Part shown: positions 1,608-21,569 of the stretch, one piece after another
Layout: every line of letters starts with the position of its first letter
How positions within the stretch are numbered: the stretch's first letter is position 1
Assembly (NCBI GenBank): GCA_017499595.2
Contig: CM039002.1
Coordinates: 558,001-622,000, forward strand
Length of the DNA: 64,000 nt
Reading direction: 5' to 3'
Source: Psilocybe cubensis
Taxonomy: Eukaryota
Translations under genes and position numbers: made by a program
Notes under the pieces: generated by a model
Told to the model about the DNA's origin: nothing
Seen by the model: the letters and a program-made list of their open reading frames with translations, nothing else
Databases searched by the model: none

Positions 1608-3288
1608 CGTTGTTTGTAGTAGGTTAGGAGAGTAAAAGACGGACAGTTTTCAAGGAAAGGGCCTTGAGCTTTTATAGTGTCGGATTCCTAATGCCAATGT
1701 GAAGTTGCCGTCATTCCATCTAGTTCCATCCCGCCAGACAGTCTCCCGAAAGCGACGGTAAATGACTCCTGACATGAAGTCTTCACCATTATTAGAAGAT
1801 ACAATCCGACAGTGCAGCTCGGACGAGACACAATTGTCGAGATTACGCCTAGTGCTTGAGGCCGCGTCCGTGTATTTTCGTCATAGCGAGGAGCATGATC
1901 CTTTGTTGCTGACCAGAGGGTTGAAGAGCGTTCATATTGGCCAAAAATAACCTTTTCTATTCGGTTTCGACTTGGCCAGCGATAGACTCGGAAGAAATAT
2001 GCCGCGTGTCTACCCCATTTCTTCAAAATTGTGATTAGTTGGCTTCAATCGAACTGAGAAGGGGCAAATGAAGTCACGATAAATTTAGACTTACATTGAC
2101 AGGGTTAACAGGGACATCTTGACAAGGATCTCTGTAGATTTCTCGGCATCTAGACTATGTGTACGCTGAAATTGTTCTGCGTCACTGCGAAATGAATAAT
2201 CGAGTAGCCAAGTTGACGGCCGAAGTTGACCAAAATCTTCCTTGCAGTCTTCAGCACCACTGAAGAGAGATAACCATCATTAATGTCGGCCTTTAAATGG
2301 GAAACTTCCGACTCCGGATGCATGTGGGGATAGGCAAAAGCAGAACAGAAGTTTCTCCACTGGCAAACCGATCTATCAGCTAAACCAATTGCGACTCGTC
2401 TAAGTAGTCATCCTATATCCATCGTAAAAGTATAATAGCCCGAGTCGTTGAAAAAGTTTTAGCAAAGTGGAAGAGGTTATATGAGCGCCAAAAAGTGTCG
2501 TTTTGCTATGGGTACCTGAAAGTTCCCAGTGCCAACCTGGTTGGTGCAAGAGACAAGCAAGAGAGAATGAAACTTGCAGGCTCCACCAAAGCATGATTAT
2601 GTCATTATTAACCGTTCGGCACCATTCGGGCCGTCAAATTTTTGTAAAGCAGTAAACTCAGCAGCCAATTGGCAATTCTAACTTGTGCTTTGAATAGCTC
2701 TCAAGCGATTGGTCGGGTCATTGCTATGGCTAACGGGCGCGTCTGGACTCCGGGACTTGATTTGCCACTGCCGTAGCAATTAACATACTTGGGCGTCGAG
2801 CAGGCGTCGAGACTGTGGTATCAGGTTGCAAGTGTGAATGTGTAGCTCTACATCTGCAGGAAAAAAAAGATTTCAGTAGTGGTACAGTTAGCCAATAGCC
2901 GGGGTAGTCTTGTTGACTGCCCCCCTATTTTATTGCTCCCGTAGCTCCCCGCCCAAGTTCAGTAGACTCGGTAGATATCTTAGTCAAGTATATAGCTTCT
3001 GTAGGTTCATGTAATCTCCATGCCAATCTCAATAGACTGTATAATATTTTTCTATGGATGCTACTGTGACTATATTGCCCACTATATGTCTATCTATCCT
3101 CAATTTAGTATTGAATTACCCAGATACATTCGGTCTATGGAGACAAAATAATCTTGGGAAATCTACTATTGTTATTACTGACCTTTATGGGGGTCCAATG
3201 CATATCACACGGTATTATAACATGATCAAGATTATGTATTCAGGTGGGTCAGCGAGCCAACCAAGTATACAGTAATTTATTTATCATA

Positions 3289-5458
3289 TCATTCTTCCAT
3301 ACCATTGTCATCATCCTCACTATCCGTCTCTCCGGAATGTCCATCAAGCTCCTGACGGACTCTAGCAATATCCTCTACAGTAAGCGTCGGCATTGAAGAC
3401 GGGGGAGCCAAGCCAGCGTGCTGACTGCAATCCAGTTTGTCAGGGACCCAAACAATACTGGTGCAACACACTTACCAGGCATGTTTGTACATTTTCTTTC
3501 GGATCGCGAGCACCACATCCTTATTGATAGCTTCCCATGTCTTGAGTACCTCGCGGAAAGCATTGTGACGTTCGAAAATGAGCTTCGCCCACATATGCGC
3601 TTTGGTGAAGGTGCCACTGCTCCACTCGTCCAAGCAAAAGTCGATCTAAAAAAGGAGTAAATTATATGTTTGCTCCACCAAGATTCACACTCACCACTGT
3701 CAGAACCAAAGCCAGCGTTTCTAATGGGATGGGGTTGAAATGGGCGGCATAAATGACACCCGGCCCAGTAAGTCCGTCAAACCAGATGGCCTCGATGGTT
3801 TCGGTAATGATTTTCCCTCTCGTATGACCGGTTTTGTTATGAGGATTCTACAATAATCAGATTCCGGCAATAATATCATTCACGAGAACGCACCTTGTAG
3901 TGAAAAGCCGCATCCGTTTTCAGTAAAGTGTAGAGGTCACGATTGTGGGCGATTGTCGAAGACTTCGTCCCCTTCTTGAAGCCAAAGAGGTTGACGACCA
4001 AGCTACGTATGATTGTCAATGCATGCCCTCGGATACGGGACGGGCGTCTTCGTAGCTGCAAAAAGAAAGCATCAGGCGACAGGAATAACAAGGGTAAGGA
4101 TGCACACTTGCGATGGAGCTAATGCCTTCGGTGATAGCATAGTTTTCCTGGCTGGCCAGACAGGCATTCCGCCAGCACCGTTCGGCCCATTGGAAGCGCA
4201 ACTCGGATGAGGGCAAAGAATTCTGGGTGCTCACCAAGACTTCGAATTCGTGTGCGGCCCTGTTGATTAATGCGCGCGCAACGTCTTCGTAGTCACTCGC
4301 CTTCAGCCTGCGTCCAGGAATTAGAACCACCCCCTCTTTGAGCTGGGGTATCATAGGCTTTTCGCCCGTCGCTCCATGCTCACGTTCGGGATGTTCTTCA
4401 TCACTGTCGTCCTGGACATCGTTACGCGAGCGTTTTTGTGCTCCGGTGGCATCGTCATCGTCGTCGCGAGACCTCTTGCCAGGTTTGGTTGGGCCATGAA
4501 TGGTTGGCGTGTCATGGACGTCTTCCATGGGGTGTGCAGAGTGGGCTTGGACTGGCGGTAATGCCTTGTATGCATGGGGTGACAGGCGCTTCGATAACTT
4601 GCCGGCGTGGGCAGCTTGAGGTTTGACGCGGATAAGCGGAGGGCGGTTTTCTTTCTCGGTGTGGGTGTAGGGCACCACTTTGACCTTTAGCAGCAATTTG
4701 GTGCATATTAGTAGACATTGAGCAGTGAGGACCCTGACTTACTGAGCTAGAGAATGAATTTGGATTATCAAACATCTCTTCTTCGCTTTCATTTTCGGCG
4801 TCGTCATCTTGCTGCGATCCTCCTAGAAACAAATGGTGGTAATACATTTATAACATAGTGGTGCGGGACTTACCATTATGTTTCTGGGCGGCCATGGCCT
4901 TTTTGAGTGCTTTGTATTGGTTTTGTATGCGGCTTAGCTCTTTTTCCAACTGGTCTTTTTCTGGGGCGGTATGAGCAGCACTGAAAATAATGGCATGGGT
5001 GTTGTAACGAACCTAACTCCGATTTTTTCATGGTAGGTTTGGATTGCCGTTTGGTGCGCTTTGCAGGTCCTTGGCTTTTTGCAGGCCCAGTGGGGGCATG
5101 TTCTTCATCGGAGGCGGCAATAGAGACTATATTAATGTATGTGACATATGTTTGTTGCAAAATTGTGTGGTTCGTACCTAGTTTTTTTTTCGGGCGTCCT
5201 CGCCCACGCTTGGGGGGTGGCACAGGTACGGGGGTAGATGCTCGGGCGTCTTCCTGGTCGACCTCGTCCTCTGACATGGTGGCCGCGTCGGATTCTTTAG
5301 GGCCTGATGTTGTCAATGTACTCGCTCGGTGGGTGAAAAAAGTTACCAGAGTCGGATGTATGGGCCTCTTGATCCTCTGGGTCGTGGTATTCATCCGTGT
5401 CGGGCTCTCCCAAATTTTCTGCTTCTGCAGTGGAGACCTGGGCTGCTCGAGGGGCCAT
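3289..5458 (-). CDS. DUF6532-like domain protein with N-terminal acidic/disordered region and AT-hook (transposon accessory gene), multi-exon
   Basis: AT-hook PKRGRGRPKKK (~5180-5212). C-terminal exons read IIRSLVVNLFGF...LLKTDAAFHYK|...IEAIWFDGLTGPGVIYAAHFNPIPLETLALVLTV|IDFCLDEWSSG, which I recognise as the DUF6532 pattern. GT-AG introns link the ORF fragments. Start may be 5458 or 5548. Confidence 0.75.
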
Positions 5459-5626
5459 TGAAGGAGGTGGGAGGGAAGGAGCAAGCAACCTACAAGTTTT
5501 AAAATCCGACAAAAAAATAACGACCTTGTTATTTGTGCCAGGCGCCATTGACCTGGGTGTTAAACATTGCCACCCCCTATTCTATAGGTGAGTGTCTCGT
5601 TGGTTCCTCTGGTTCAATCAGTCACT

Positions 5627-8600
5627 ATGTTTCTCCATCACCCCAGAATAATTCGATGTATGTACTGCACCCACGCCCCCTTTGCATCGGAGGATAGCTT
5701 GTATCGGCACATCTGCAACTCAAAGGGTTGCAGAGCAAAGATGGAAAAACTCTCGAGTGGCGACAGACTGCCCCCACCATCTGCGGATCTCTCTGTGTCA
5801 GAAGATGAGGTCTGGCCCGATCCGCCAGTGACTCCTTGGGCTCCCATGCATACTCAACCTCTACCTGAGAGTTCCGAGTCAGCAACCGAAAACAGCGAAC
5901 CCTGGGGCAGTGCACAGCAACCAGATGTGGAGGACAGCGGGTGCTCATATGTAGAGACATTTCCTGGCCCTACAGGCACTCCGGTCGGGAGAGCACCAAC
6001 GGACTATCAGCAACATGCCGAGTGGCAAAAGCAAAACCAACTGGAATCATGGTATCCATTCGCATCTCAGGATGAGTGGGAATTGGGCCGCTGGTTAATA
6101 AGATCCGGTTGCAGCACTGAAAGGATTGACGAGTTCTTGAGATTGAATATGGTGAGTCTCGTCGCAGATGTTGTGAGCCCTGTGCGAGCTGATTCCTTGC
6201 AGATGCGTAGCCGTATGAGGCCTGCATTCAAAAACACCAGAGCGTTGCACAAACGCGTCGATCTGCTGCCCGAGTCTTCACCTTGGTTTTTCAAGCCCCT
6301 CAAAGTCACAGGAAACCTCAAGGACCACCACAACAAGTATTTGGAGGAGGACTTGGAGTTGTGGTATCGCAACCCTGTGGATTGTATAGCAGAATTACTC
6401 CAAAATCCCGCCCTGGACGGACGGTTAGGTTTTGAACCACGACGCGTGTATCGCTACCCCAATTCGATGGATCGTGAATACAACGAGATGTGGAGTTGCG
6501 ACTGGTGGTGGGAAAGACAGGTATGTTGGTCAATAATGATGTTCATCGGGGCAGCGATTGACTTACCAAAAAACATAGAAGTTACTGCCTGAGGGTGCCA
6601 CCGTGTGCCCTGTCATTATATCGTCTGATAAGACCCATTTGACGAACTTCTCGGGTGACAAACAGGCATGGCTGGTATACATAAGTGTCGGTAATATACC
6701 GAAAGAGCTCCGTCGCAGTCCCTCGGCCAAGGCAATGGTTCTGCTAGGCTATCTCCCAGTCGCTAAATTCGCATGTTTTGATGAGGCCCGCCAGGCTGTG
6801 GAAAAGTATCAATTATTCCATCGCTGTATGCGTATCATCATGGAACCTCTGATTAAAGCTGGGCAAGAAGGAGTCCAATTGCAGTGCGCAGACGGTTATG
6901 TGCGCCTCTGTTTCCTGATCCTCGCTGCCTATATTGCAGATTACCCGGAGCAATGTCTAGTCACTTGCATCCGAGAGAACTCGTGCCCGCGTTGTCTTGT
7001 TCTGCCGAAGCAAAGAGGCGAATACATGGACAGACCCCCATTACGCACGCCCGACCATACTTTGGAGGTCCTCGACGACACCGCCCAGGGCAACAAGCAC
7101 CCGGACTTCAAGAAATATAACTTGAGATTGGTGGATCCGTTCTGGCGTGATTTGCCTTTCTGTGATATCTTCGAGGCCATTATGCCAGACCTTTTGCATC
7201 AGTTGCACAAAGGTATTTTCAAAGATCACATCTGTAATTGGGCGGGTCAGGCTTTGGAAATCGCAACAGGGCCAGGAGAAATGGACGAACGCTTTAAAGC
7301 CATGAGTTTGCACCCAGATGTACGGCATTTTGACGCTGGCATCACGCACACAACCCAATGGACGGGGAAAGAGCACAAGGCAATGGAAAAGGTTTTGTTG
7401 GGTATCCTAGAAGGCGCCGTCAATGATCGTGTCATCCTCTGCGCCCGGGCATTGCTTGATTTCATATATTACGCCTCCTTCGAGACCCACAGCGACAAGT
7501 CTTTGCGTATGTTAGACAAGTCTTGGCTATGTTTCCACCAAAACAAGAACATATTCGTAGAGCTGGAGCTCCGCAAGCACTTCAATATCAGCAAACTACA
7601 TAATATTCGGCATTATGTGGATGCGATTCGTTCATTTGGCACCTTGGATGGATTCAACACCGAGAACACGGAACGTCTGCACATTGATTTGGCCAAGGTC
7701 GCATATCGGGCTTCTAACAAGCAGAACTACGTCCCACAAATGATAGGGTGGCTGCGCCGACGGGAGAACATACACAAGAACACGATTTACTTGCACTGGA
7801 GGACGCAATGGACGGAGGAGCATAATGAGGAGTCAGACACCGAGGATGAGGATGACGCAGGCGAGGATGAGGAGGATGATGACGTGGACCAGGTAGAGGT
7901 GGGTGAGGTTGCGGGAGCCAAGGAGGTAGTTCATCGTGTGGCCTTGCGAGCACCACTGCCCGCGGTGCCCCTGCGCACGCTTGTGCATGAGTATGGGGCA
8001 GAGCAACTGTTGTCGGAACTCAATTACTATCTGGAGGATGTAGGTTCGCAGTACAAGGCCTCAATTTCTAGCACGTTCGCCGTGTATCCGCGCGCCAGGC
8101 TGACCTTGCCTGTCATACCTGAGGTCGGGACGGAACCAGTCAGAGACGCGCTGTCGGCGACCCCCGCCGTGCCCGCGCGACATACCCCACAGGGAACCAA
8201 GCGAGCTGTACCACCCAAATTCACCACGGCACTTTTCAAAACAGCATCTACCGATGTCAACAAAGGCCCGTTAGATGGTCTAGCTGTTGGTCAGATCCGT
8301 TTAATCTTCGATAGCCCACGCACTACCTCAGACACGACCAAGACCCCTTTGCTGTATGTCCGTTGGTTCAAGCCCCTCCGTTTGCCGCAGACAGAAGCAG
8401 GGCTCTGCGAAACATCATGGTCCTCGCGACACGGAGCTACGCGGGCCACTGTAGTGCCTTTGACAGACGTCGTACGAAGCTGCCATCTCATGCCTCTGTT
8501 TGGGCGCCATATAGCCAAGGAGTTGGGGTGGCAGGCAATTGACGTACTACACCAAGCACCCAAGGTTGCTCTGAATCCTTATCTTCGTTTGTATGACTTC

Positions 8601-8687
8601 TATTGGTTTCGGTATAAGTTATCTATGCATGAAGAGGAGGCGTCGCCGGATCGAAAGGCGACTTTTGGTAAGAAACGCAAGCGTTGA
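5627..8687 (+). CDS. Plavaka transposase (CACTA/EnSpm-related RNase H-fold DDE), with N-terminal zinc finger; about two internal introns
   Basis: C-x2-C...H-x5-C finger (CMYC...RHICNSKGC); WYPFASQDEWELGRWL; LWYRNPVDCIAELLQNP; EMWSCDWWWERQ; IISSDKTHLTNFSGDKQAW; AYIADYPEQCLV; CPRC; PDLLHQLHKGIFKDH; GTLDGFNTENTERLHIDLAK. Introns at about 6151-6202 and 6521-6578. No disabling stops seen. The 5' end is uncertain (GTGAGT donor at 5588). Confidence 0.93.
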
Positions 8688-8746
8688 GCAGTAATGGAGG
8701 ACTACAGATTTCCATCTATGACAATGTAGACACCATATGATATACA

Positions 8747-9501
8747 CTAATGACGACCCAAGTGTAGTTGGGCTCGACCCTGAATGTGTTCCAAGGTTTG
8801 CCTTAAAGACTTTACTTGGCGTTCCAGAAAGTCAATACGATCCGTGAGTTCCTCTTCTTTGTCAATGAACCGGAACGCCTGCCCAATTTCTTCGGCGTCG
8901 TACTCCTCCTCGAGAAGCTCCTGGAATTTAGAGAGGCGGAGCACCTCCTTTTGTATGACCTTCATCGCTTCACGAGCAGAGCAAGATGCCCGGGTGCGGT
9001 TGCGTACGCGAACAGGGCTGCCTGGGGTTTCTTCGCCCCAGGTGTTAGGATCGAGTTCGCTATCGCTATCTGTGGGACAATTAATGTTCGGGGGCTCTAG
9101 TATATCCGCTATCACATACCTGACGATAGGCTAATGATTTCCTCCCCTTCAGAGTTGTTTGAACTCTCTGTGGCGGCAGCAGCAGCGGGGGCCTCGGCGC
9201 GGCGCACCACAGTGCGTACTACGCCCTCAGTGACACTGTAAGTAAAGATTAGTGGTAGCTCTGGGGTGGGATTTAAGTAACTCACCTGTGACGAGTTCTA
9301 ATGGCGGCCTGGCGAGCAGGCAGCCTACGGCGTACTGGGCCAGATGCCCTGAGGCCTGCGCGTTGTGGTGCAGCTGGGGCAGATGCACTGGGGCCTCCAC
9401 GTCGTGGGGCAGCCGATGGCGAAGCAGGTGTCCTACGTCTCCAACGAGGGGTCCTGGGTGGACGGAGGTTCATGGCGTGGCGCGACTGACCGGGGCTCAT
9501 G
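8747..9501 (-). CDS. Hypothetical transposon cargo protein, Arg/Pro-rich N-terminus and C-terminal coiled coil
   Basis: ORF 8747-9115 has heptad-like EELTDRIDFLERQVKSLRQTLEHIQ. Upstream exons are linked by a GTGAGT donor near 9285 and a CAG acceptor near 9237. Exon structure is inferred. Confidence 0.45.
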
Positions 9502-9777
9502 TGGGAGGAGCAGAAAGAGGAGTGCGGCGCCCAGACACCGGCTTGTAGCCCTCTTATATCGTCTGAGTTATGGCTCAAACATTTGCCACAAAATTGCCAA
9601 TGGCGATGGCGAAGGTGGCGATCACTTTGTTGGAGTTTACTGAAAATTTTTTGGGTTTCGTTCGATCCCATGCTCGATTTATGACACGCAGGGGAAAACT
9701 TTAAGATTCCAATAGACGTGACTCTACTCGAAAAGATGTGTAGGTACAAAGGAATGTATGAGGTTCAACCCATGTCC

Positions 9778-10350
9778 TCAGACCCTCCGGGACCTCTTCT
9801 TGTTAAGCGCCTTTCTCAGCAGCGCCACCTCTTTTTGTAACAACATGATCTTCTGGTCGTCAGCAACGGCCTTGATCTTCATGAAGCGGACTTCTTTGTT
9901 GAGAGCGATGTTGAGTTTGTGATCAGAGCGGAATTGTTCCAATCGTTCGTGAAGTAGGTCCTGAATTTCGGCTTCGCGATTTGTCAAATTCAAGCTCACA
10001 TGGTGGTGGTGCAGTGACAACTCTTCCAGGCGTTGCAGGTGTTCCCGAATGACCGCGATCGAATGGTGAATGGCGGCCGGTGTCGCGGACGATCTCGCCG
10101 TCACCGCTGGCTCAACCTGGCCTGGAAACACATCATCTGGACCGATGTCTACTATGCTAGCTGGAGAAGTTTCGGCAGCAATGTCTCTGCAAGATAAAAA
10201 GTTGAGCACAGTGGACATGGCTGCAACCAGGGCGAAATACTTACGACAGTCTGAGGGCCCCGCGTCGGCGTGTAGCATTCGGGGTGGGTGTTGAAGGGGT
10301 CGCCGAGGAGGGTCGATACCTCTGGAGTGATGGCGTAGCCCGACGGACAT
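9778..10350 (-). CDS. Hypothetical transposon cargo protein with C-terminal coiled coil and basic tail
   Basis: Part of the 245-aa ORF 9778-10515, with a probable in-frame intron (GTAAGT ~10244 to TTGCAG ~10187). Ends IMLLQKEVALLRKALNKKRSRRV (possible NLS). Confidence 0.5.
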   Translation of the reverse strand: MSVGLRHHSRGIDPPRRPLQHPPRMLHADAGPSDCRKYFALVAAMSTVLNFLSCRDIAAETSPASIVDIGPDDVFPGQVEPAVTARSSATPAAIHHSIAVIREHLQRLEELSLHHHHVSLNLTNREAEIQDLLHERLEQFRSDHKLNIALNKEVRFMKIKAVADDQKIMLLQKEVALLRKALNKKRSRRV

Positions 10351-10576
10351 TAGGAGAATGAATCGTGTTAGCTTTGGAGCGGTGAGGCGTTGGGGTGCGA
10401 GACATGATGGCAGACCTGATAGAAATTGCAGAGGCCATGCCGCTTTTATATATGCCACGAACATGTCAAATTTCCGGGTCATAGTTATGTCCAAATGACC
10501 TCCGCCTGTTGACATTTATATGGCAACACAATCCATACGGCAGACAGACATGTTTTCGTAGTAGAGATTGTACATC

Positions 10577-11500
10577 TTACTGGCTGACGGACTGTTTAAT
10601 GGCATCTACAACCTTGATAAATTCATCCCGCTGCCGAGTCCACTCCAATCGTTCTGCCTGGAGGGTGTCACGCTCCTGGCATACCGCCGCTAGTGTCTTC
10701 TCCAGTGAATCTTTTTGATCGACAGACTTAGCCAGTCGCTCTCGCACACGACCCCAATCCATCTTTTCGTCTTGCCAACGACTGAAAACATCGTTGATGG
10801 AGGACTTGGTGGCGCTGACCATTCTCTCTAAAGCCGAGACCGAGGCCTCCATTTCTTTGACGGAATTCTGCACAGACTGTATGCGGCGTTCCAGTTGGTC
10901 CTCTCGATCCATAACGAAGCGGCCTGCAGGTATACGCCACAGGATCTCCTCATGGAGAGCCAGTGCCTCAGCCGTGACAGGCCCTCCTCCGCGCGCTGGC
11001 TCTGCACAAAATCAGTACAATAGACCCAGTTAAATACGCATTACTCACTATCGCTATGGTTGTCCATGCTGTCCTCTGTGACGGAACCGCCTTCCTCAAC
11101 TACTTGCGCGGCGTTGTGAGCGTCATTGTGGTCCTCAACAACCTGACTTTCTTCATAGTGAACTGCGGTAGCGACCTGAGTCAGTAATCACTTCGCAGGG
11201 GCCCACCAATGGACACTCACCAGACACATACTGGCTGCATTCGTCGTCGGCTAACTGCGTCTCCGTTGCTTCAAACATACCGGCAGGTGAGGCTGGATGA
11301 GGGGACGTAGACGCGCGAGATATAAACACGCGAGGAATGGGGGTCTGAGGCGTAGCGTGGCGCTGAAACGAGACTCGCTTGTCCTTGGTGGGGGATTTGG
11401 GTTTGCGGCGGGCTCTGCCTCCCGGGGATGGAGAGCTGGTGGCGTCGGAGATTGACACACGAGGGGAGGACGTGTGACTCGCCTTGTTCGTACGAGCCAT
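10577..11500 (-). CDS. Hypothetical transposon cargo protein, three exons, long C-terminal coiled coil
   Basis: Exon 1 MARTNKASHTSSP...ECSQYVS ends at a GTGAGT donor (~11220). Exon 2 reads HYEESQVVEDHND. Exon 3 includes the 111-aa heptad-rich ORF (LERRIQSVQNSVKEMEASVSALERMV). Confidence 0.55.
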
Positions 11501-11675
11501 GGAGAAGACTAGGGCGCAAAAACATACACAGTCGGCTCATGCCTTTAAGGAATAAAATTGCATGATCGGTCGGCGGGGGCGTCGCGATCGGGCGGCATGA
11601 CGTAGGCGAGGGTAGAACACGGTCAGCACCCCCATAACAGGGGCCCCGATCGCGTATCGATAAGGTGTAAGGGCA

Positions 11676-12179
11676 GCACACCAGAGAGCTCTGGTGTGCG
11701 GGGTATAAGTCGTTGTCCAGTCTTATCAGAGACCTCTGATCACGGCACGAGGGCTGGTGCTAATCGAAGTAGTTTTCCATTGATTTGGCGAAGAAGGTGG
11801 GGTCGATACGGAGTGTGCGGATACAATGTCGGGGGCGATGAGAACAGACCAGAGACCTCTGGTGGGCTATCACAGTGTGTTACCCCGGTTACATGATTGG
11901 GAGCAAAAGCGCGAGTGCAAGACACGCCAGAGAGCTCTGGTGGGTCTGACACTATACCGCCCAGGGGGAGCACGACCAGAGACCTCTGGTAAGCCCCGCA
12001 GACGTCTGGGCGCCGCCATGCAGCTTGTCAGGTTGCGCCTCTTGTCGATAACGAGCTGGGCTAGGCGGTAGGAAACCAGAGAACTCTGGTTGTCCTAAAT
12101 CACCTGGGATGGTGCAGCGAACGAGCCAGAGATCTCTGACTTGCCCGCGACCCCCGCACCCAAGACCAGAGAACTCTGG
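11676..12179. repeat. Array of eight 14-bp palindromes (C/T)CAGAG-AN-CTCTG(G/A) separated by unique spacers
   Basis: Copies start at 11681, 11726, 11849, 11927, 11976, 12076, 12126 and 12166. Centres are AG, AC, AC, AG, AC, AA, AT, AA. Confidence 0.9.
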
Positions 12180-12296
12180 AGGCGGGAGGGGTGAGGTTGC
12201 TATCAAGATGGTTGCAATCCACATCACCCCTTGTCGTGTCACGTGGCTCTTTCAAACTCCGCTCAGGTACGTTTTGATTCCTAAGTCCCTCTTCCC

Positions 12297-12653
12297 GTAC
12301 CTCCCGGTCGCCCTACAGAAGGTCTTCTGTAATCGCGACCCCGACAGGTACACCGTCTCTTCAGAAGGTCTTCTGAACAGACGCTGTAAATAGGGAAACC
12401 GTCGTTGGCCCCTAGAGTCCCACTGCCCCCTACCTCCTGGTCGCCCTACAGAAGGTCTTCTGTAATCGCGACCTCCACGGGTACACCGTCTCTTACTGCC
12501 CCCTACCTCCTGGTCGCCCTACAGAAGGTCTTCTGTAATCGCGACCTCCACGGGTACACCGTCTCTTCAGAAGGTCTTCTGAACAGACGCTGTAAATAGG
12601 GAAACCGTCGCTGGACGGAGGGTGGTGTGTCGCTCTACAGAAGATCTTCTGTA
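12297..12653. repeat. Array of six 18-bp palindromes T(A/T)CAGAAG-(G/A)T-CTTCTG(T/A)A, within 73-bp tandem and ~107-bp direct duplications
   Basis: Copies start at 12314, 12360, 12447, 12520, 12566 and 12636. Exact tandem unit at 12422-12494 and 12495-12567. Confidence 0.9.
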
Positions 12654-12823
12654 AAAGTGACCCTCTCTTCACCCTGGAACTCTCTTCACATCATATTCAC
12701 ATTCACAACATATTCTGCATAGCTGGTGTACAAAGCTGGGTTGCGTCTATTGCTCTTCGTACGTCGTATTACTGGGGTAACGTATGCTGGGACAACAACT
12801 GATGTCTATCACGCAGATACACA

Positions 12824-15800
12824 ATGCCTCTCACTTCCCAGATTGACTGGTCGAAGGGTACCGTCTTCATCCACGACGGCACACTTATTTGTTCGCCCAA
12901 CTCCAAACGATTCGTCATACTACCTTGTGGGCCACCTTCACTGAAGCATTTGGAAGCCGCCAAAGATGAAAACAAGGCCCACCTGCCTTACCCCGGTTCC
13001 ACACATTTTGACCGCAAACTCGATATCGACCTCGCCTTATACCGGCAACCCGTGCAGTGGGAAGACAGTTATGGCTGGCTGGCCTTCGTACCATTGTCAC
13101 CATCATTCATATCCTTGCCATTCAAGCCATTGTCTTGGACCCCAGAACCGAGGCGGTGGAGGACAGGTCAAACCACATACCAATGGGAAGTAGAGTCTCA
13201 TGAAAAGGGCGAATGGTATAGATGCGAATCTCAGCTCGTTTACCTCTGCGAGAAGCTACGGTTATGGTATCGCATACCGGGTACCCCGCCTCCTGTGCCG
13301 TCTCGGTTTGGTTATGACAGACCGCACCGAAGTAAAGAAATTGCCGAGAAGATGGTTGAGGTGTCGCGCAATGCTTTCGTGTTGTGGATGGGTTTCCTCT
13401 CCTACCTGATTGCGCAATCTCGTCGTCCGGAGCACGCCGCCCACCTACGTGATGACGGTAAGAAACCCGTCCCTGCGTGGCATACCAAAATTCTCGAGGA
13501 GCAGGCCGCTGAGGCTGCAGCAGCAGTGGCTGCTTCGGCCCAAACAGGATGGGATCCTATCACCCCACCTCCGCCCTTGATCACGGAGCCATGGTTGGAT
13601 GGTCTCCGCCAGTCAGTGGTCTGGAACTTCACTCCACAAACGCCGCGCGCTGGAATTGCCTACGATTGGACCACATCGCACCGCACGCGACCTCCGATTG
13701 AGTTTTTTTTGGACAATGCCATCGCAGTGTACTATCCTTGGGGAGTAGTGGAGGAAGACACTATGAAAACACACAAACTGGTGCGGCAGGACCTGAGACC
13801 TCCGTCCGAAATGCTGGCCACGGTGCTAGACGAATTTCTCGGGTCGACGGATGTGCCACTGGCCACTCTGTTCATGCGCAAGTATTACGAGCAACCCGAC
13901 AGCACTGTTTCGCCCAGCATTAAACTGTTAGGGCAGAGCCACTCGCAATCGTTTGTGTTTCAGCACATCATGGACCGGTATCACAACGAACAGACTGCAT
14001 TCGAGAGAGCATGGGACAATCCAGACAACCTGGACATTGACGACATTCTGCGGCAGAGATCTTCCCAAGTAAATGCGAAGGCCCGACGGATGGAGGAGAA
14101 CTGGAATGATTCCTTTACGGAAGGTCATGAAATGCAAGGACGTATTTCTGGAGTTGTGGATGTCACAGGAGACGTTCGTGGCATACAAAATACCGAGTCA
14201 TTCACTGATTGGGAGCCGTACTGGACACGACGACTGGCTCAATGGCGCAAGGCGTTGGAGAATGAGGACCCCGCTGCTCGTCGCTTGCGGTTGGCTCGCG
14301 AGAAACAAAAGCCTACCCGACGCACCAAAATGTATCAGTGGAAAATGGTGCGCCACGCCAACGGCACAGTCACATACCTCAGGCAACTGGTATCGCCCAA
14401 CATGGCTGCCAAGTTGTACCACAAGTACCGTCCACGTCAAGTTGTGTACAATTCCATTGACAACGTCTGGGATCTTTGCCGGTACTTCAAACCTCCAATT
14501 GAGCTGGCTCAAGGAGGCTCAGACAATAGTGACTTGAGTTCAGGAAGTTCTGACGAGTCAGACCCTGGCCCCATTCCCTTGGTGTCCAAACCCAATCAGG
14601 TGGTTAACACGCCAGAGCCCCAGGAACCGCGCGTGCAACAGTTTGACCCTAGCAGTCGCCCGCCAACTCCTGCTGCGGAACATTTCAGTGGGTATCCAGG
14701 ATCGCCGGATATGCAGGTAGATGCAGTCCATTCCCATGTCACCGACACAGTCCCACCCCCAGACGTGGAACCTGCCCTCACTCTCCTGGACGCCAGGCCC
14801 CCACCGGCCCCCAAGCCAGATGCACGCACAGGCTGGATGGTGCCCGCTCGGAACCTGGTACAATCCTTGCGACTGGGTTATGGGTATACAGGCCCAGGTT
14901 CTGGGTTCTCAGTGCGTGCTTCCACCACGACGAAGGATGAACGCAAGGAATGGCTTGAGATTGTGGAAAGCCTGGGTTTCCTAAGCGCCAATGCCGACGA
15001 CCACCTTGAAGAAGCCGACAAGCAGACTGTGCAGGTCTTCTATCAACATTACGTCGTGTCCGACAGTGAAGACATGTTGGCTGACCTATGTGACCTGCAC
15101 CCCAACAACAAGTACGGGCTACACACCTTCTTGGGATTACGAGAGGTACAGCGCCCCCACAAGAGCATGTTCGTGTTCTCTGAACCACGCTCACAGTGGT
15201 CAGACTGGAAACTTGGTGTGGAAACGGCCGAGGTCGCGTTATACGTATGTCGGTTGATGCAGATGTATCCCACTCTGGACATCGACGACATTGGGTACAA
15301 ATTGCTAAGCAAGGGCGTGCCCTGTCGCACCTTCGTCAAGATCCCAGCATCGCCCCGGAGTAAAACCGTCGTTGACAAGTTTATTCCGACCTCATTCCGT
15401 CCCGCGGGGTATACATTTGTGGTGGAAGACTTCCTAGAGTACCGACATCAATGCGAGACTCTTTTGAGCATGCCACAGGGTAGAGCCGCTGTTTTAAAGG
15501 GGGGTATAATCAGTCGCATTGCCAGTGAATACCTGGGTTTGTTATCTACTTTGGAAGGCCCATCCCCTGAAATCATCACTAACAAGCAAGGTTTCATGAT
15601 ACTTTTGGGGCCTAACGAGTGCTGGGCTGATGACGAACTCACGGAAAAAGAGTTAGCGGTGTTGTGTGGCACATACGGAATGTATACGGGTAAGCTGACA
15701 TCACAACTTGCTGGTTCACAACTCACTCACTTGTATACAGCTCGTGCCAATCAGACCACTATTGTCTCATGGTTCCCACCGGCGGACCTCTGGGCCCCTG

Positions 15801-16030
15801 GGTCCTTGAGAAATGGTCGTCAGCTTATTGAGTGGACACCAGACAATGAAAAGTGGTATCAAGATCGCGTCCGAGATATTCTTGCTGGTCAGGCTCAGCC
15901 ACACACAAAGGTACAGTGGAGGACATGGTATCGCGGTATACCACAGGCGCGCCGCCTGAAGGAGCAGTCATCTCATCGTAGTGCAGACTTTGTGGACCGC
16001 CATTTGCCCATCACCCAAGGCAAACTGTAG
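12824..16030 (+). CDS. Uncharacterised ~1050-aa transposon-borne protein (Trp-rich N- and C-terminal domains, disordered linker)
   Basis: 1068-codon ORF, probably with one in-frame ~51-nt intron (GTAAGC ~15690 to TACAG ~15740). C-terminal block GRAAVLKGGIISRIA...DDELTEKELAVLCGTY...SWFPP...W...EWTPDNEKWYQDR...I...G.AQP...W resembles an agaricomycete hypothetical family that I cannot name. Confidence 0.8.
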   Translation: MPLTSQIDWSKGTVFIHDGTLICSPNSKRFVILPCGPPSLKHLEAAKDENKAHLPYPGSTHFDRKLDIDLALYRQPVQWEDSYGWLAFVPLSPSFISLPFKPLSWTPEPRRWRTGQTTYQWEVESHEKGEWYRCESQLVYLCEKLRLWYRIPGTPPPVPSRFGYDRPHRSKEIAEKMVEVSRNAFVLWMGFLSYLIAQSRRPEHAAHLRDDGKKPVPAWHTKILEEQAAEAAAAVAASAQTGWDPITPPPPLITEPWLDGLRQSVVWNFTPQTPRAGIAYDWTTSHRTRPPIEFFLDNAIAVYYPWGVVEEDTMKTHKLVRQDLRPPSEMLATVLDEFLGSTDVPLATLFMRKYYEQPDSTVSPSIKLLGQSHSQSFVFQHIMDRYHNEQTAFERAWDNPDNLDIDDILRQRSSQVNAKARRMEENWNDSFTEGHEMQGRISGVVDVTGDVRGIQNTESFTDWEPYWTRRLAQWRKALENEDPAARRLRLAREKQKPTRRTKMYQWKMVRHANGTVTYLRQLVSPNMAAKLYHKYRPRQVVYNSIDNVWDLCRYFKPPIELAQGGSDNSDLSSGSSDESDPGPIPLVSKPNQVVNTPEPQEPRVQQFDPSSRPPTPAAEHFSGYPGSPDMQVDAVHSHVTDTVPPPDVEPALTLLDARPPPAPKPDARTGWMVPARNLVQSLRLGYGYTGPGSGFSVRASTTTKDERKEWLEIVESLGFLSANADDHLEEADKQTVQVFYQHYVVSDSEDMLADLCDLHPNNKYGLHTFLGLREVQRPHKSMFVFSEPRSQWSDWKLGVETAEVALYVCRLMQMYPTLDIDDIGYKLLSKGVPCRTFVKIPASPRSKTVVDKFIPTSFRPAGYTFVVEDFLEYRHQCETLLSMPQGRAAVLKGGIISRIASEYLGLLSTLEGPSPEIITNKQGFMILLGPNECWADDELTEKELAVLCGTYGMYTGKLTSQLAGSQLTHLYTARANQTTIVSWFPPADLWAPGSLRNGRQLIEWTPDNEKWYQDRVRDILAGQAQPHTKVQWRTWYRGIPQARRLKEQSSHRSADFVDRHLPITQGKL

Positions 16031-16501
16031 CCTGGTGTGTCAAAATTGGTATGTACTCTCATATTGGCGACATACGCCTTGCTGACCTTACGCAATTGAC
16101 ATTCAGTATCATAACGAATTTCTTGTTGGTATTTCATCTTGGTAAGTAGTTTCATAGCCTCTACTAAGTGTGTCACTCACGCCACACGCACACCACACAA
16201 TCAATTAGGCCAAGCAATATATGTATATTATCAGAAGATTAATAGTTCGTCGTAAGATTATTATGCAACAAAGGTCTGGTATGTACAAGTGGGGCGACGA
16301 CGGGGGTATATTCTACTCAAATCAGCAAAACAGCACAAGAGCAATATCTACAAAGAGAGGTATGATACACCAAGAAAACATGATAGCAGAGAGTCCAGAG
16401 ATAATGATACAGGTAGCAAGAAAGCACAAAGCACAGCAAGAAAGCGAAGCAACAATGACAGCACAAACGCAAGAAAAAAACACCCGAAGAACCCAACCCA
16501 A

Positions 16502-17119
16502 TCACAACCTGCTCACGCTACGCTGGACAAGTTTATAGTGTTTGCAGAGCTTTTTGTAGACGGGGTCTGGGAAGCGATGGTGGAGGAATCGCTCGAAAGC
16601 CAAGTTGTTGATGCGGCAGTAATGCTCGAGGATCTCTCGAAGAGCGGCATTATGAACAAGTAGCGCTGGCAGGGGCGCTAGTTCATCCTGTTGGACCAGC
16701 TGGTTGGCCACGGTGGCAAGGTCATGACGTCGGGTGACAAAAGGAAGGATGGAAGAGTGGAGGCACCGAAAAACAATGCCGGCGCGTTCACGATCCATGG
16801 CCGCACTGCGAAGGTGCGCGTCCGCATCGGAGTCCACAGGCCAGGCTGCCAATAGCGGATGAACGACGTCAATTAATGGGAATCGGCGCAAGACGCGCAC
16901 CTGGTACACAAGGCAACATTTCCACCCAACCCCCCATATCCACCTCGCTATCCTGCTCTTCCTCCAATAGCGGTGCGCGGTCGCTGTTGTCTGGCTGCGA
17001 CATACGACGATGTAACGGAATGGTGTCCTTGTTGTCGACACCGAGTGCGCGTCGCAGTTTGCTGGAACCGGCCTTACAGAACTTGGCAAGGACTGTGAAA
17101 AGTCTGCCAGCCCATACAA
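16502..17119 (-). CDS. Small hypothetical transposon cargo protein (structure uncertain)
   Basis: 205-aa ORF with a protein-like C-terminal half (LATVANQLVQQDELAPLPALLVHNAALREILEHYC...). The 5' exons are unresolved. Confidence 0.35.
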   Translation of the reverse strand: MYGLADFSQSLPSSVRPVPANCDAHSVSTTRTPFRYIVVCRSQTTATAHRYWRKSRIARWIWGVGWKCCLVYQVRVLRRFPLIDVVHPLLAAWPVDSDADAHLRSAAMDRERAGIVFRCLHSSILPFVTRRHDLATVANQLVQQDELAPLPALLVHNAALREILEHYCRINNLAFERFLHHRFPDPVYKKLCKHYKLVQRSVSRL

Positions 17120-17439
17120 GGATGAAACAAATAATGAAAGCCAGGGCCTTGGTGAGGTAGTGGATGAGCTTGCCGTGCAAGCGAAGGTCAGAGGTGATAG
17201 TGTTGTGCATTGAAGAGATGTGGTGGTGGTGATGATGGGTATTGCAGAACAAGATGTGAGTGCGAGAAATTGGGGAAAAAATTCAGTTTTTATTTCAAGG
17301 AGCTATAGACAAACGTTGGCAAACGATATGGCAACACAGGTATAAGTTAGCACCACTAAACTACTTGTTCTAGGTGGTATATTAATGTGCCAAATGAACA
17401 TGAACAGAGGTATGGTGGGGCAGCAGGCTCAAGCCAAAA

Positions 17440-17731
17440 AAATGATGCCATGGGACGCGTCTAGACGCGCCCTCCAACGCGCCCTTCAACCCATACAGAA
17501 GGCCCAAAAGGCCCCCTTTAAAACCCCCCTCGTACTCCGTCGCTGCCGCCGCCGCCGTCGTCGTCGTCGTCGCGGGTGTACTTGTCCCACCCATCACACC
17601 CTCCAACTCGCCTCCCACCCCAAACGAAAGCCCAAACGCCCCCACCCCACTGCCCCACCCCTCCTGTTCCGTCGTCACCCGCCCTCGCCCACTCCGCTGC
17701 CGTCGTTGGCACCACCGTCGTCGTTGGCACC

Positions 17732-17765
<34 letters not shown>

Positions 17766-18054
17766 CGGGTGCCCTCGTTCCACCCATCGCACCCCCTCCA
17801 ATTCGCCCTGCAACCCATAACGAAGGGCCACAAGGGCCCCAACCTATACCCCCCCCTCCTACTCCGTCGCCGACGTCGCTGTCGTCGTAGTCGTCTTCGT
17901 CGGCGGCGGCGCCGTCGCCGCGGCTGCCCTCGTCACCCATCCCACACCCTCAAACCGCCCTGCAATCCATAACGAAGGGCCACAAGGGCCCCAACCAACC
18001 CTCCCAACCCCCCTTCTACTCCGTGGTCGCCGTCGCCGCTGCCGTCGTTGGCAC

Positions 18055-18087
<33 letters not shown>

Positions 18088-18226
18088 GGGTGCCCTCGTC
18101 ACCCATCCCACACCCTCAAACCGCCCTGCAACCCATAACGAAGGGCCACAAGGGCCCCAACCTATACTCCCCCCTCCTACTCCGTCGCCGACGTCGCTGT
18201 CGTCGTAGTCGTCGTCGGCGGCGGCG

Positions 18227-18259
<33 letters not shown>

Positions 18260-18600
18260 TGGGCGGCTGCCCCTCGTCCCACCCGTTCTCATCGCCCTCC
18301 ATCACATAGAACCCATGCCAAGGGGCCCCAAGGCCCCCAGGCAATGCCCCCCCCTTCCTGCTCCGTCGTCGTCGTCGTCGCTGTCGTGGTCGCCGGCGTC
18401 GTCCTCGTCCTCGTCGCCTCCCACCCCTCCCAGACCCTCCAAACCGTAACGAACGCCCAATAGGGCCCCCCAATACCCCCTCCTAGTCCGTCGCCGCTGT
18501 TGTCGTCGTCGTCGTTGGCGTTGTCACCGTCGTCGTACGTCGTTGTCGTAGTGAGACCTCGTCGGTCGTCGGCGTCATCGTTGACAACGATGACGACGAT
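17440..18600. repeat. Subterminal GC/CpG-rich minisatellite: ~130-190-bp units of a C-rich block plus (GTC)n/(GCC)n tracts
   Basis: Near-identical core GCCCTGCAA(C/T)CCATAACGAAGGGCCACAAGGGCCCCAACC at ~17805, ~17957 and ~18123. Degenerate copies at ~17481, ~17610, ~18310 and ~18440. The cores alternate with GTC triplet runs. Confidence 0.85.
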
Positions 18601-18670
18601 GTTAATTATAAAAAAAAGATTATGTAACGTATGGACGTATCATGACTTACCGCATCTCTTCCTATATCAA

Positions 18671-18742
18671 AGTCTCATGGTCTAGTGGTTAAGCGCTGCG
18701 TCTTTTTAGCTGAAGTCGGTGGTTCGAACCTCGACCAGGCCA
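18671..18742 (+). pseudogene. tRNA-derived sequence retaining Pol III A-box and B-box
   Basis: A-box TGGTCTAGTGG (18678-18688) and B-box GGTTCGAACC (18721-18730) at tRNA spacing, ~72 nt overall. Acceptor, anticodon and T stems pair poorly, and there is an internal T5 at 18703-18707. Confidence 0.65.
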
Positions 18743-19016
18743 TTTATTTGGCGCGCGGACTACAAAGGCTACGGGCCTATCGTAAGTACCGCGGTATGTC
18801 GCCTTGGCCTTGATTATACTATCTTCGTAGAATACCGTATGTCGTGAATGCAGTGTATTAAACATATGTAATGAAAACATATCATGTAATTGAATTATGT
18901 AAGTCTACTAAGTACTACAAAAGCTACTGGTAAGTGCGGTTAATACGGTGTCTACGGTAATATAGGTGTAAGCTACTGAAAAAAACGTTTCCCGCTGATG
19001 TACTCGGAATCCTATT

Positions 19017-20297
19017 CATCGCGAAAACCGCCAAAAACATGCATTGCCTTTGTACCCTTTTAAGGTAAGTCAGGAATTAGCCGACCTTACCAAGCCAATC
19101 AAAACATTTGTTGACCTTGGATTGCCTTTGAAAGGTTAGTGAATTATTAACTGATCTTTGCTTGGGATTTTAATATCTGTTCTTATTGTAAGTCATAGCA
19201 AAATATTTCAGATGTATGTATAATCAGAGAATTATAAATTCTACCTTATTTTCCAATATAATTATATGCTTTGCCTTATATTGTGTTGTAAAGCTTTAGA
19301 AAAATATTTCCTTGTTAATGAAATCTTACCTGAAAATTGAAAGGCAAACCAATATCTAGATTAGTAGTGTAGGTTATTCATTGATTTTTAGTTATTATAT
19401 TGATTGTTCAATATTTATAACCACGGGGCGCTCCTCACTGCTCAGAGCAAGCTCAGAGACAAAGTTCCGTGAGAGATCACATGACATAGAGTCAGACATT
19501 GGGGCCACGGAAATTGGGGACGGGGACTCTAAAAGACCGTCGCACAACTCAAAACAACTCTGTCAAGGCTTTTCACTTCCCCATCTTCAAGAAATTAAAT
19601 GGTAAGAATTTCTTCCTAACTTGTGAGATTCCTGCCGTATAACCTCTAGCAAGTATACAGTTCCAACAGTACTAGCACACATGTGGGACTGGGTTTGGCT
19701 GGTCAGATAGTAAGTGCACATCATATTCTGTACCATCTATTCCACAATGTACTCATTTTCAACACGAAGGTGACCGACTATCTGATTCTCGCACTCGGTC
19801 TCGTTCTTGCACTTGGTCTCATTCTCGCACTCGGTCTCGTTCTCGCACTCGCACTCGCACTCGGTCTCGTTCTCGCACTCGCACTCGCACTCGGTCTCAT
19901 TCTCGCTTTTAGCGTAGTTTTTTTGCTCTGCTGTTTTGACTTCTACAGTAGCTTTTTTTACTACACGTGTATTTGTATTCAGTTGGTTAATAAGCAATTT
20001 GTACATTTCTGGATACCGGCGGCCAAGCCAGAAAGAGTGAAATAAGATTCATTAATGAGCGCACATCTTTGCAAAGTTACCCAGCTTTGCAAGGGCAATT
20101 AAAGATTTGCCCTGCCTTCAAAGGTCAACTAAGAATGACCAAAAGTTACAAAGGATTCGCAATGTTGCTAATTATAACGTGTCCTTACTTGTAAGTGCTT
20201 ACAAGTAAGGCCATTTATAATCTTTGTGTCCTTAGTGCCATTTGTTACCTTTATTAGCAATGTATTATCTGGCAAACTTATGGCGGTTTTCGCGATG
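19017..20297. mobile_element. Non-autonomous TIR DNA transposon (1,281 bp), CATC...GATG ends
   Basis: Perfect 17-bp TIR CATCGCGAAAACCGCCA (19017-19033) / TGGCGGTTTTCGCGATG (20281-20297). TT flanks both sides (19015-16 and 20298-99). AT-rich interior with no transposase ORF. Confidence 0.9.
19783..19906. repeat. Hexamer-based tandem repeat (CTCGCA/CTCGGT/CTCGTT/CTCATT) inside the non-autonomous element
   Basis: Directly visible: ttctcgcactcggtctcgttctcgcactcgcactcgcactcggtctc... Confidence 0.85.
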
Positions 20298-20663
20298 TTT
20301 TTGTGTAAGTTGGAACCAATCTGAATATCGCGGCTATCACCAGTTCCGCCTAGACTCGTGAGCAGACGTTTTTAAAAAAATCAATAAGCAGAGTTCCGTG
20401 TATATTTAGAGGTTGTTTAAAGGTCCGATTAGAGTCCTTGTGGTGTTTGCCTTCCGGTGCCGCATCTAGACTGGACGAATCTAAATATTGAGTTTCAAAG
20501 GTTTTTCTAAGACCGTCAACCTAGATTTGAGAGTCCAGGCACCTCGGGGTACAGAGACTACTGCCTGCCAAATCACGTTGATTTCTACAATCTAATATTG
20601 AAGAGTCCGCAACGATACATTGCACACTATTGCCTGCAGTTTACACGATTAGGTAGCCAAGCT

Positions 20664-21569
20664 TCATGGTATGACTCCGTCCTTAACAGACTGCCATGAT
20701 TCTCGAGACGAAATATCATTCCACCATCTAAATAACATTGTCAATAATAGAAGATCAGGTAATCTAATATATATATGCCTGCTGGAAAACATACCTGGCG
20801 ACGTTGGGCCTTGTCGGAGAATCAAGGCCTGATGCTCCAGCGTCCTTAAGCAACGATCCGTATGGAAGGTGATACAAATCAGCGAGAGTTACAGACTGTT
20901 GAATATCATTGTCATGATTTGGAAGAACCAGAATACAGCCGACGGAAAGCATACGTTACCGACCAAATATTTCTGTTTGCTGAGGATTTTTTCGTAGACA
21001 TCAAGCTTTGTCTCGAGAGTCGCAAGAAGTTTGTCAGCAAGCTCGACGTTGCCGACTACCCCATACTTTCTAAATAAACAAGAAGCAGCGTAATCGACAT
21101 GAATACATGCACGGTGATATAACAAAGGTTCACGTTACGGCTTGAAAACTTTTTCGACTACAGCCTTTTCAGCATATTCATTAAAATATGCCTGCTCTAT
21201 CGAAGATGCCTGTTGAAAAAGTGCGTAGGCAGCAAAATCGGTAAAGTCGGGTATTAACCCAGGGGTTCCTTGGTTAGCATACTTGGCCGCAATATATTGG
21301 CAAATAGCCCTGCTTTCATAGAGGATAAACCCATCATCGTCCTGTATGTATAGATCAGACTCCCCTGAGGAGAAATGCGGTAAGTAAGAAATGCTTACTA
21401 TGCAAGGGACGACACCGAAAGGTTGCTTCTCAAGAAAATCTGCGGATTTGTGTTCTCCTTTTAAGAGATTGACTTCTTTCAAGATGAATGGCACTTGTTT
21501 TTCTTTGAGAACAGTCGCAACGCGCCAGGTGCAGGTTGTCATAGGGTTGCCATAGAGCGTTAGGACCAT
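20664..21569 (-). CDS. Glutathione S-transferase (phi-like/fungal), multi-exon
   Basis: MVLTLYGNPMTTCTWRVATVLKEK...KQPFGVVPCI|DDDGFILYESRAICQYIA...LDVYEKILSKQKYLVGN|SVTLADLYHLPYG...RPNVAR|WWNDISSRESWQSVKDGVIP*. Confidence 0.93.

Follow-up and report, generated by a model that had tools for sequence, protein, structure and literature searches.

The window, meaning here the whole 64-kb stretch of DNA that was analysed, contains a 16.1-kb PlavakaB transposon, and two arrays of short palindromes lie in the middle of this element, in a non-coding gap between two divergently oriented genes. The features of the element, of the gap and of the adjoining DNA were placed as follows.

2851 to 19000, plus strand: PlavakaB transposon (CACTA-like), 16.1 kb, with ends CATCTGCAGG... 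and ...CGCTGATG and target site duplication TA (or TAC)
5627 to 8687, plus strand: Plavaka transposase (PF18759) in two open reading frames (ORFs), 5627–6592 (E 6e-25) and 6735–8687 (E 8e-64)
10577 to 11011: downstream exon of the leftward gene, coiled-coil, with Pfam coiled-coil matches below the curated cut-offs
11153 to 11500, minus strand: first coding exon of the leftward gene, with its ATG at 11500
11501 to 12823, no strand: putative divergent intergenic control region, about 1.3 kb between the leftward coiled-coil gene and the rightward 1068-aa gene
11632 to 11647, plus strand: motif CCATAAC-A-GGGGCCCC, at the left edge of the putative control region and again in the 3′ tandem repeats at 17815, 17967 and 18133
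11676 to 12179, no strand: array 1, eight CAGAG-AN-CTCTG dyads with unique spacers, cores at 11682, 11727, 11850, 11928, 11977, 12077, 12127 and 12167
11999 to 12008, no strand: variant palindrome CAGACGTCTG (CAGA-N2-TCTG), the ninth palindrome, within array 1
12314 to 12653, no strand: array 2, six (T)(A/T)CAGAAG-(G/A)T-CTTCTG(T/A)(A) dyads
12824 to 16030, plus strand: 1068-aa gene (P0001), of a large fungal family with no recognised fold
19017 to 20297: non-autonomous relative of 1.3 kb, with ends CATCGCG..CGCGATG flanked by TT, adjoining the large element

Plavaka elements are abundant in mushroom genomes, and to our knowledge nothing is known of their control apart from the transposase. 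In the available part of PMC12730594, PlavakaB elements are defined by the termini 5′-CATCA..TGATG-3′ and a 2–3-bp target site duplication. In the present element the two ends form an inverted repeat, imperfect and about 35 bp long, and the flanking TA (or TAC) is duplicated. The element agrees with that definition, its left end reading CATCT and not CATCA. Contigs of three other runs (X5, X6 and X7) join position 2851 to 20298, the 11 letters between being equal to 19004–19014 of the window, and since these contigs cross an empty site, the stretch of 17.4 kb is an insertion polymorphism. From left to right, the large element carries a leftward DUF6532 gene, the transposase, three leftward genes whose coiled-coil segments gave Pfam matches below the curated cut-offs, both arrays, the 1068-aa gene in rightward orientation, a leftward ORF and 1.1 kb of tandem repeats. 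The first of these, a multi-exon gene with a DUF6532 segment (E 1.3e-10) at 3289–5460 on the minus strand, is divergent from the transposase and is another passenger.

Array 1 had been placed, in a preliminary description of this DNA, between the divergent coiled-coil and 1068-aa genes, and the gap of 11501–12823 agrees with that placement. The outermost dyads of the two arrays are 176 bp from the predicted ATG at 11500 and 173 bp from that at 12824, the latter being confirmed by a homologue alignment and an upstream in-frame stop. The arrays are non-coding and, to judge from the sequence, would occupy promoter positions for both divergent genes. A candidate 56-nt intron at 12761–12816 (GTACGT ... 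CTGAT ... CAG), read from sequence alone, would remove the upstream ATGs at 12784 and 12802 of a short frame that runs into the beginning of the 1068-aa ORF (region 12761–12846).

The 1068-aa protein belongs to a family of 1378 representative clusters (50% identity) at E ≤ 0.001, whose named members come from Psilocybe and Pholiota, and no homologues were found in the viral and prokaryotic collections. Sequence searches gave no match in Pfam, no usable match in the Atlas and 0 matches in the PDB. Structure prediction was confident for an N-terminal part (residues 1–360, pLDDT 80, pTM 0.82) and a C-terminal part (residues 671–1068, pLDDT 84, pTM 0.86); Foldseek against solved structures returned no match with E < 1 for either domain, and the best VIA-align Z scores were 5.9 for the N domain, to generic helical bundles, and 2.9 for the C domain, with no DNA-binding fold among them. 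Cre and XerH were considered as relatives of the protein and dropped at a Foldseek probability of 0.04 or less. In the neighbouring ORFs Pfam detected no DNA-binding domain, and a bZIP identity for the coiled-coil genes was rejected, Pfam giving no bZIP match.

For array 1, a pattern search with CAGAGNNCTCTG (CAGAG-NN-CTCTG) returned 8 occurrences in the 64-kb window, all within 11682–12178, against 0.07 expected by chance, and a count of 8 was reached in 0 of 100 shuffles. The start-to-start distances first reported (45, 123, 78, 49, 100, 50 and 40 bp) were reproduced exactly, and no 10.5-bp helical periodicity was detected in these spacings of 40–123 bp. The seven spacers (28, 33, 37, 38, 66, 88 and 111 nt) showed no mutual similarity above shuffles (top local score 10, null maximum 10.6) and no second match inside the window, so that the original description of eight dyads with unique spacers stands. 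The full 14-bp form CCAGAG-NN-CTCTGG is present in six of the eight copies, with perfect arm lengths of 11, 7, 7, 6, 7, 8, 5 and 6 in order along the array. The first central base is A in 8/8 copies, and given this the sites are polar.

The two copies that depart from the 14-bp form bear on an earlier statement that symmetry was kept more than sequence, with the arms changing together. The copy at 11725 has the symmetric form ATCAGAG-AC-CTCTGAT, as claimed, but the other variant copy, at 12126, is asymmetric (CCAGAG-AT-CTCTGA), with one arm alone altered, which weakens the statement. The paired changes at 11725 also carry less weight than first thought: both are C>T/G>A transitions, and because such transitions dominate the changes among copies of the region, the variant can be two ordinary transitions. 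Such transitions make up 220 of the 408 changed places in X5, 220 of the 418 in X6 and 129 of the 295 in X7 (window positions 1500–21400), as expected for cytosine-methylation decay or a RIP-like process acting on this transposon.

A scan for all dyads showed that only two short dyads are recurrent across the 64 kb, the array 1 motif and that of array 2. CAGAAG-NN-CTTCTG occurs in six copies at 12316–12651, where 0.01 would be expected, with perfect 8-bp arms of two kinds (TA.. and TT..) and a centre that is GT in five copies and AT in one. These copies are embedded in tandem duplications (a 73-nt unit present twice at 100% identity and a 115-nt unit present three times), and the unit number of array 2 varies among copies of the region, a 10-nt insertion at 12612 being found in runs X6 and X7. 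The array 2 centre is the reverse complement of the AC/AT centre of array 1, so the two arrays are oppositely oriented, with mirrored central polarity. An outer CAGA..TCTG is common to all three palindrome types, with 2, 4 or 6 bases inside: array 1 is of the CAGA-N4-TCTG type and array 2 of the CAGA-N6-TCTG type. In total, 15 dyads lie in this compact internal region, 8+1 in array 1 and 6 in array 2.

The arms of array 1 had also been said to extend differently in different copies, which the range of perfect arms (5–11) and an analysis of the flanks bore out. Over 12 flanking positions per dyad and both arrays, 63 of 132 positions were complementary; permutations gave about 41, and not one of 20000 came up to 63; array 1 alone, with 12-nt flanks, gave 46 matches compared with 32.5 (P=0.0007). 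This symmetry is copy-specific, in that each dyad's left flank pairs better with its own right flank than with the flanks of the other dyads, and the extra symmetric positions are scattered and non-contiguous in most copies. It constitutes the main unexplained point of the locus, and it is compatible with old palindromes, once longer, that erode inwards, with mutation by template switching where hairpins form, or with selection that favours hairpins.

Copies of the region in X5–X7 were compared over 12034–12658; among the rows of differences listed, 10 indels (12034–12612) and 4 substitutions (12220–12658), none falls in a dyad core, and 44 indel and 521 substitution rows stand beyond those listed. 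For the wider family, a metagenome scan for 1068-aa homologues gave three loci (L001, L002 and L003), of which L003 is without upstream DNA. L002 (1–2995) contains the end of one homologue, a 1.85-kb non-coding gap and the start of a second homologue at 34% identity. This gap holds short motifs in both orientations, with modules AACTTGAA (28 occurrences within one mismatch, 4.6 expected), CACTGGCA (6 occurrences, 0.13 expected) and GCAGTTGC, as well as four different perfect dyads within 255 bp (1443–1709). At L001, a more distant homologue (30% identity), neither an array nor a Pfam match was found in the 5.3 kb upstream. The idea that arrays would stand upstream of homologous genes was thus upheld at one of the two examinable loci, L002, with other motifs than those found here, and failed at L001. 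A search for the two-dyad pattern in the viral_contigs and genome_contigs collections yielded one locus each, with 2 dyads only and no array.

We consider there to be about an even chance that the dyad arrays are putative two-fold-symmetric protein-binding sites that together form a bidirectional control region. Each 12–16-bp dyad would take up a dimer of a sequence-specific DNA-binding protein, a long series of such sites would permit multivalent, cooperative occupancy, and this occupancy would set the transcription of the two divergent transposon genes, array 1 being paired with the adjoining leftward coiled-coil gene and array 2, in mirrored polarity, with the adjoining rightward 1068-aa gene. 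That the sites would be read as duplex DNA is argued by the invariant core amid unrelated spacers, by the exact fit of the arrays between divergent genes, by the presence of two related and mirrored site types, each next to one gene, and by the absence of the dyads from the element ends. An unchanging core between spacers that have nothing in common calls for selection on that core, or for its conversion. The same observations leave clustered operators for an element-encoded dimeric protein as the best supported of the earlier proposals, although the words "element-encoded" go a step further, to what we infer; protein binding and a dimeric state of the binder would likewise follow from the form and setting of the sites.

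The 1068-aa protein and the coiled-coil proteins are candidate binders, in the manner of TnpA autoregulation in En/Spm. Somewhat unlikely as it is in this specific form, the dyads may be operators of a transposon-encoded, orphan-fold DNA-binding protein, from the 1068-aa family or its coiled-coil neighbours, that coevolves with lineage-specific palindromes. Several findings count against binding sites for a regulator of the two genes: neither confidently predicted domain of the 1068-aa protein matches any solved fold, Pfam sees no DNA-binding domain in the ORFs nearby, symmetry extends past the core in a copy-specific way that plain dimer sites do not predict, the centre of the array 1 dyads is polar, and the 5.3 kb upstream at L001 is arrayless. 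The upstream region of the L002 homologue, full of other short motifs in both orientations, counts in favour, as do the excess of dyads over chance and, among the rows of differences listed, the lack of any change in a dyad core. Compared from general knowledge with heat-shock, MADS, Zn2Cys6 and RFX sites, the dyads fit none that we know of. If such a protein were confirmed, it would represent a new class of sequence-specific DNA-binding protein, in a 1068-aa family with more than 1,300 sequence clusters in fungi, and Plavaka transposons would have in this region a self-contained switch, in which the two types of site serve the two divergent genes. The arrays offer a ready bait for finding the binding protein and could give a function to a very large orphan family that travels with the elements; as operators, they would also make the region usable as a tunable bidirectional promoter part for basidiomycetes.

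An arrangement of this kind has counterparts in well-studied systems. In the yeast GAL1–GAL10 region four Gal4 dyads lie between divergent genes, the operator/enhancer of phage Mu lies between divergent promoters and controls both expression and transposition, and the gypsy retrotransposon carries an array of 12 Su(Hw) sites with non-conserved spacers, which are non-palindromic and bound by a host protein. The present locus resembles the Gal4 upstream activating sequence, the target of a dimeric protein, in having clustered copies of dyad-symmetric sites between two divergently oriented genes, and differs from it in the lack of CGG triplets, the larger number of sites (8+1 and 6), the two mirrored site types and the setting in a mobile element. 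With Mu and gypsy it shares an internal, non-terminal cluster of protein sites, putative here, that would control expression of a mobile element; hosts, proteins and motifs are different, and the gypsy sites are not palindromes.

The closest counterpart in a related transposon suggests another function, namely that the dyads are cis-acting sites for transposition, either an internal counterpart or relic of CACTA-type subterminal arrays or the former end of a separate element that carried the 1068-aa gene, which we regard as unlikely. According to the accessible text of PMC2613891, the subterminal arrays of CACTA elements (En/Spm, Tgmt*) consist of reiterated short motifs in direct and inverted orientation, with unrelated sequence between them and up to 12 stem-loops, and TNPA-like proteins are thought to bind them; each lineage has motifs of its own, thought to coevolve with an element-encoded binder that also regulates the element's promoter (PMC2613891, in the part seen). 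The two arrays are like these in having short motifs that recur both as direct and as inverted copies (a half-site of 5–8 nt in 8+1 and 6 inverted pairs), many of them capable of forming stem-loops, and in belonging to the same broad clade, Plavaka transposases being grouped with EnSpm in the CMCT clade in the available part of PMC12730594. Contig structure points the same way. Contigs of X5, X6 and X8 end within array 1, at 11753–11760. In X6 and in X7 a single contig connects 5371 with 11807, a weak joint with 35 letters on one side and 80% likeness. The motif at 11632 (CCATAAC..GGGCCCC) occurs 4 times, with 0.03 expected, and through its reappearance in the 3′ tandem repeats it brackets a segment with the arrays and the 1068-aa gene.

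Position argues against sites for transposition. CACTA arrays sit within a few hundred bp of both ends, whereas here a single cluster (11676–12653) lies mid-element between divergent genes, and no relative of TnpA accompanies it; from the ends that the empty site defines, 2851 and 19000, it is 8.8 kb and 6.4 kb away. The subterminal regions (2851–3004 and 18750–19000) have a motif set of their own, in which CAGTAG, CCGTAG and GGTAG recur on either strand, and neither region contains the dyad motif. These repeats are likely the transposase or accessory-protein sites of this PlavakaB family, and a published PlavakaB consensus also shows GTAG-type repeats at its start. Because the ends carry this different motif, the dyads are not terminal transposase sites. 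Neither an inverted-repeat partner nor an internal CATCA-type terminus was found near the arrays. A module of arrays and 1068-aa gene without the transposase is not claimed, as it rests on the 35-letter, 80% joint; cover of X7 is absent in 9 of 12 bins over 3492–11459 and present over 11460–18099, missing cover being taken as no evidence.

Equally doubtful is the reading in which the arrays have no function: local duplication, short-patch gene conversion and "palindrome perfecting" by template switching would have left them behind in an internal part of the transposon that is prone to repeats. Array 2 plainly derives from recent tandem duplication, as its identical 73-nt units and its varying unit number indicate, and template switching produces copy-specific arm extension of the kind observed. 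Neutral decay would, however, erase core and spacers alike, and the 12-bp core is identical in the eight copies of array 1 though the spacers are without similarity; the location exactly between two divergent genes is a further point against a by-product.

A less probable explanation still is that the dyads act as hairpins and not as duplex sites, either as RNA stem-loops, located in long 5′ leaders transcribed in both directions and carrying GNUC loops when read in the direction of the neighbouring gene, or as DNA cruciforms, which would be recognised by a structure-specific protein or would modulate translation or stability. The copy-specific arm extensions keep this reading alive, weakly, and, owing to the mirrored polarity, the loops are of one type when each array is read along its neighbouring gene. 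When folded as RNA, five dyads form stems of 10–13 bp at −12.5 to −18.2 kcal/mol, but the remaining stems are of 4–7 bp, 9 of 14 stems reach only −5.9 to −9.1 kcal/mol, and the added symmetric positions are mostly scattered. Fold z-scores of −4.3 and −3.7 for the two strands are a trivial consequence of the palindromes, and Rfam matched no family at the arrays. In favour, the plus strand is free of ATG over 12209–12783 (575 nt), as in 95 of 5000 dinucleotide shuffles. The minus strand, however, is also free of ATG over 12223–12689 (467 nt, a length that no other ATG-free run on the minus strand of the window reaches), and the depletion is therefore not specific to one sense. Both runs probably go back to the scarcity of AT dinucleotides in the repeats. 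Inside array 1, upstream ATGs occur in both senses.

A guide-RNA repeat-spacer locus directed against mobile elements or mycoviruses, loosely like a CRISPR array, can be set aside as extremely improbable, the likeness being the superficial layout of palindromes alternating with unique spacers, while CRISPR arrays have partly palindromic, near-identical repeats of about 23–55 bp and spacers of uniform length, and this locus has 12–14-bp repeats, irregular spacers of 28–111 nt without another match in the window, no domain of a processing enzyme, effector or nuclease by Pfam in the 23 ORFs around the arrays, and the promoter-like setting of a eukaryotic transposon, in a different kingdom of hosts. 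The related early suggestion of a hairpin-punctuated RNA processed like a repeat-spacer array is likewise not supported, the conserved part being 12–14 bp, the spacers varying from 28 to 111 nt, most stems being of 5–7 bp and Rfam giving no match.

Returning to the arrays as putative protein-binding sites, lineage-specific arrays of inverted motifs bound by an accessory protein are textbook knowledge for CACTA elements (PMC2613891, as far as its available text goes). What appears to be new is the internal, single position between divergent genes of a Plavaka element, with two mirrored site types, which is not described in the literature searched. The accessible text of PMC12730594 treats Plavaka structure in terms of ends, target duplications and TET/JBP cargo only; in that text the word "subterminal" is absent and "palindrom" occurs once, in another context, and the exact dyad strings are absent from 193,142 characters of its supplement, in which long cells are cut. 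A literature search for palindromic sites at bidirectional promoters of basidiomycete transposons gave nothing relevant among the matches listed.

To the right of the last ORF, the tandem repeats at 17475–18540 (1.1 kb) extend towards the right subterminal region in CGT-triplet-rich units of about 136–166 nt, and their minus strand would encode acidic, Thr-rich low-complexity peptides. The single weak Rfam row in the window, mir-598 (33 bits, cut-off 69), falls in the CGT repeat at 18208–18261. No tRNA was found in the window; a tRNA-like stretch at 18660–18740 contains GGTTCGAACC, for which ARAGORN makes no call, and several contigs of other runs diverge in this stretch, with loose ends at 18703 and 18721.
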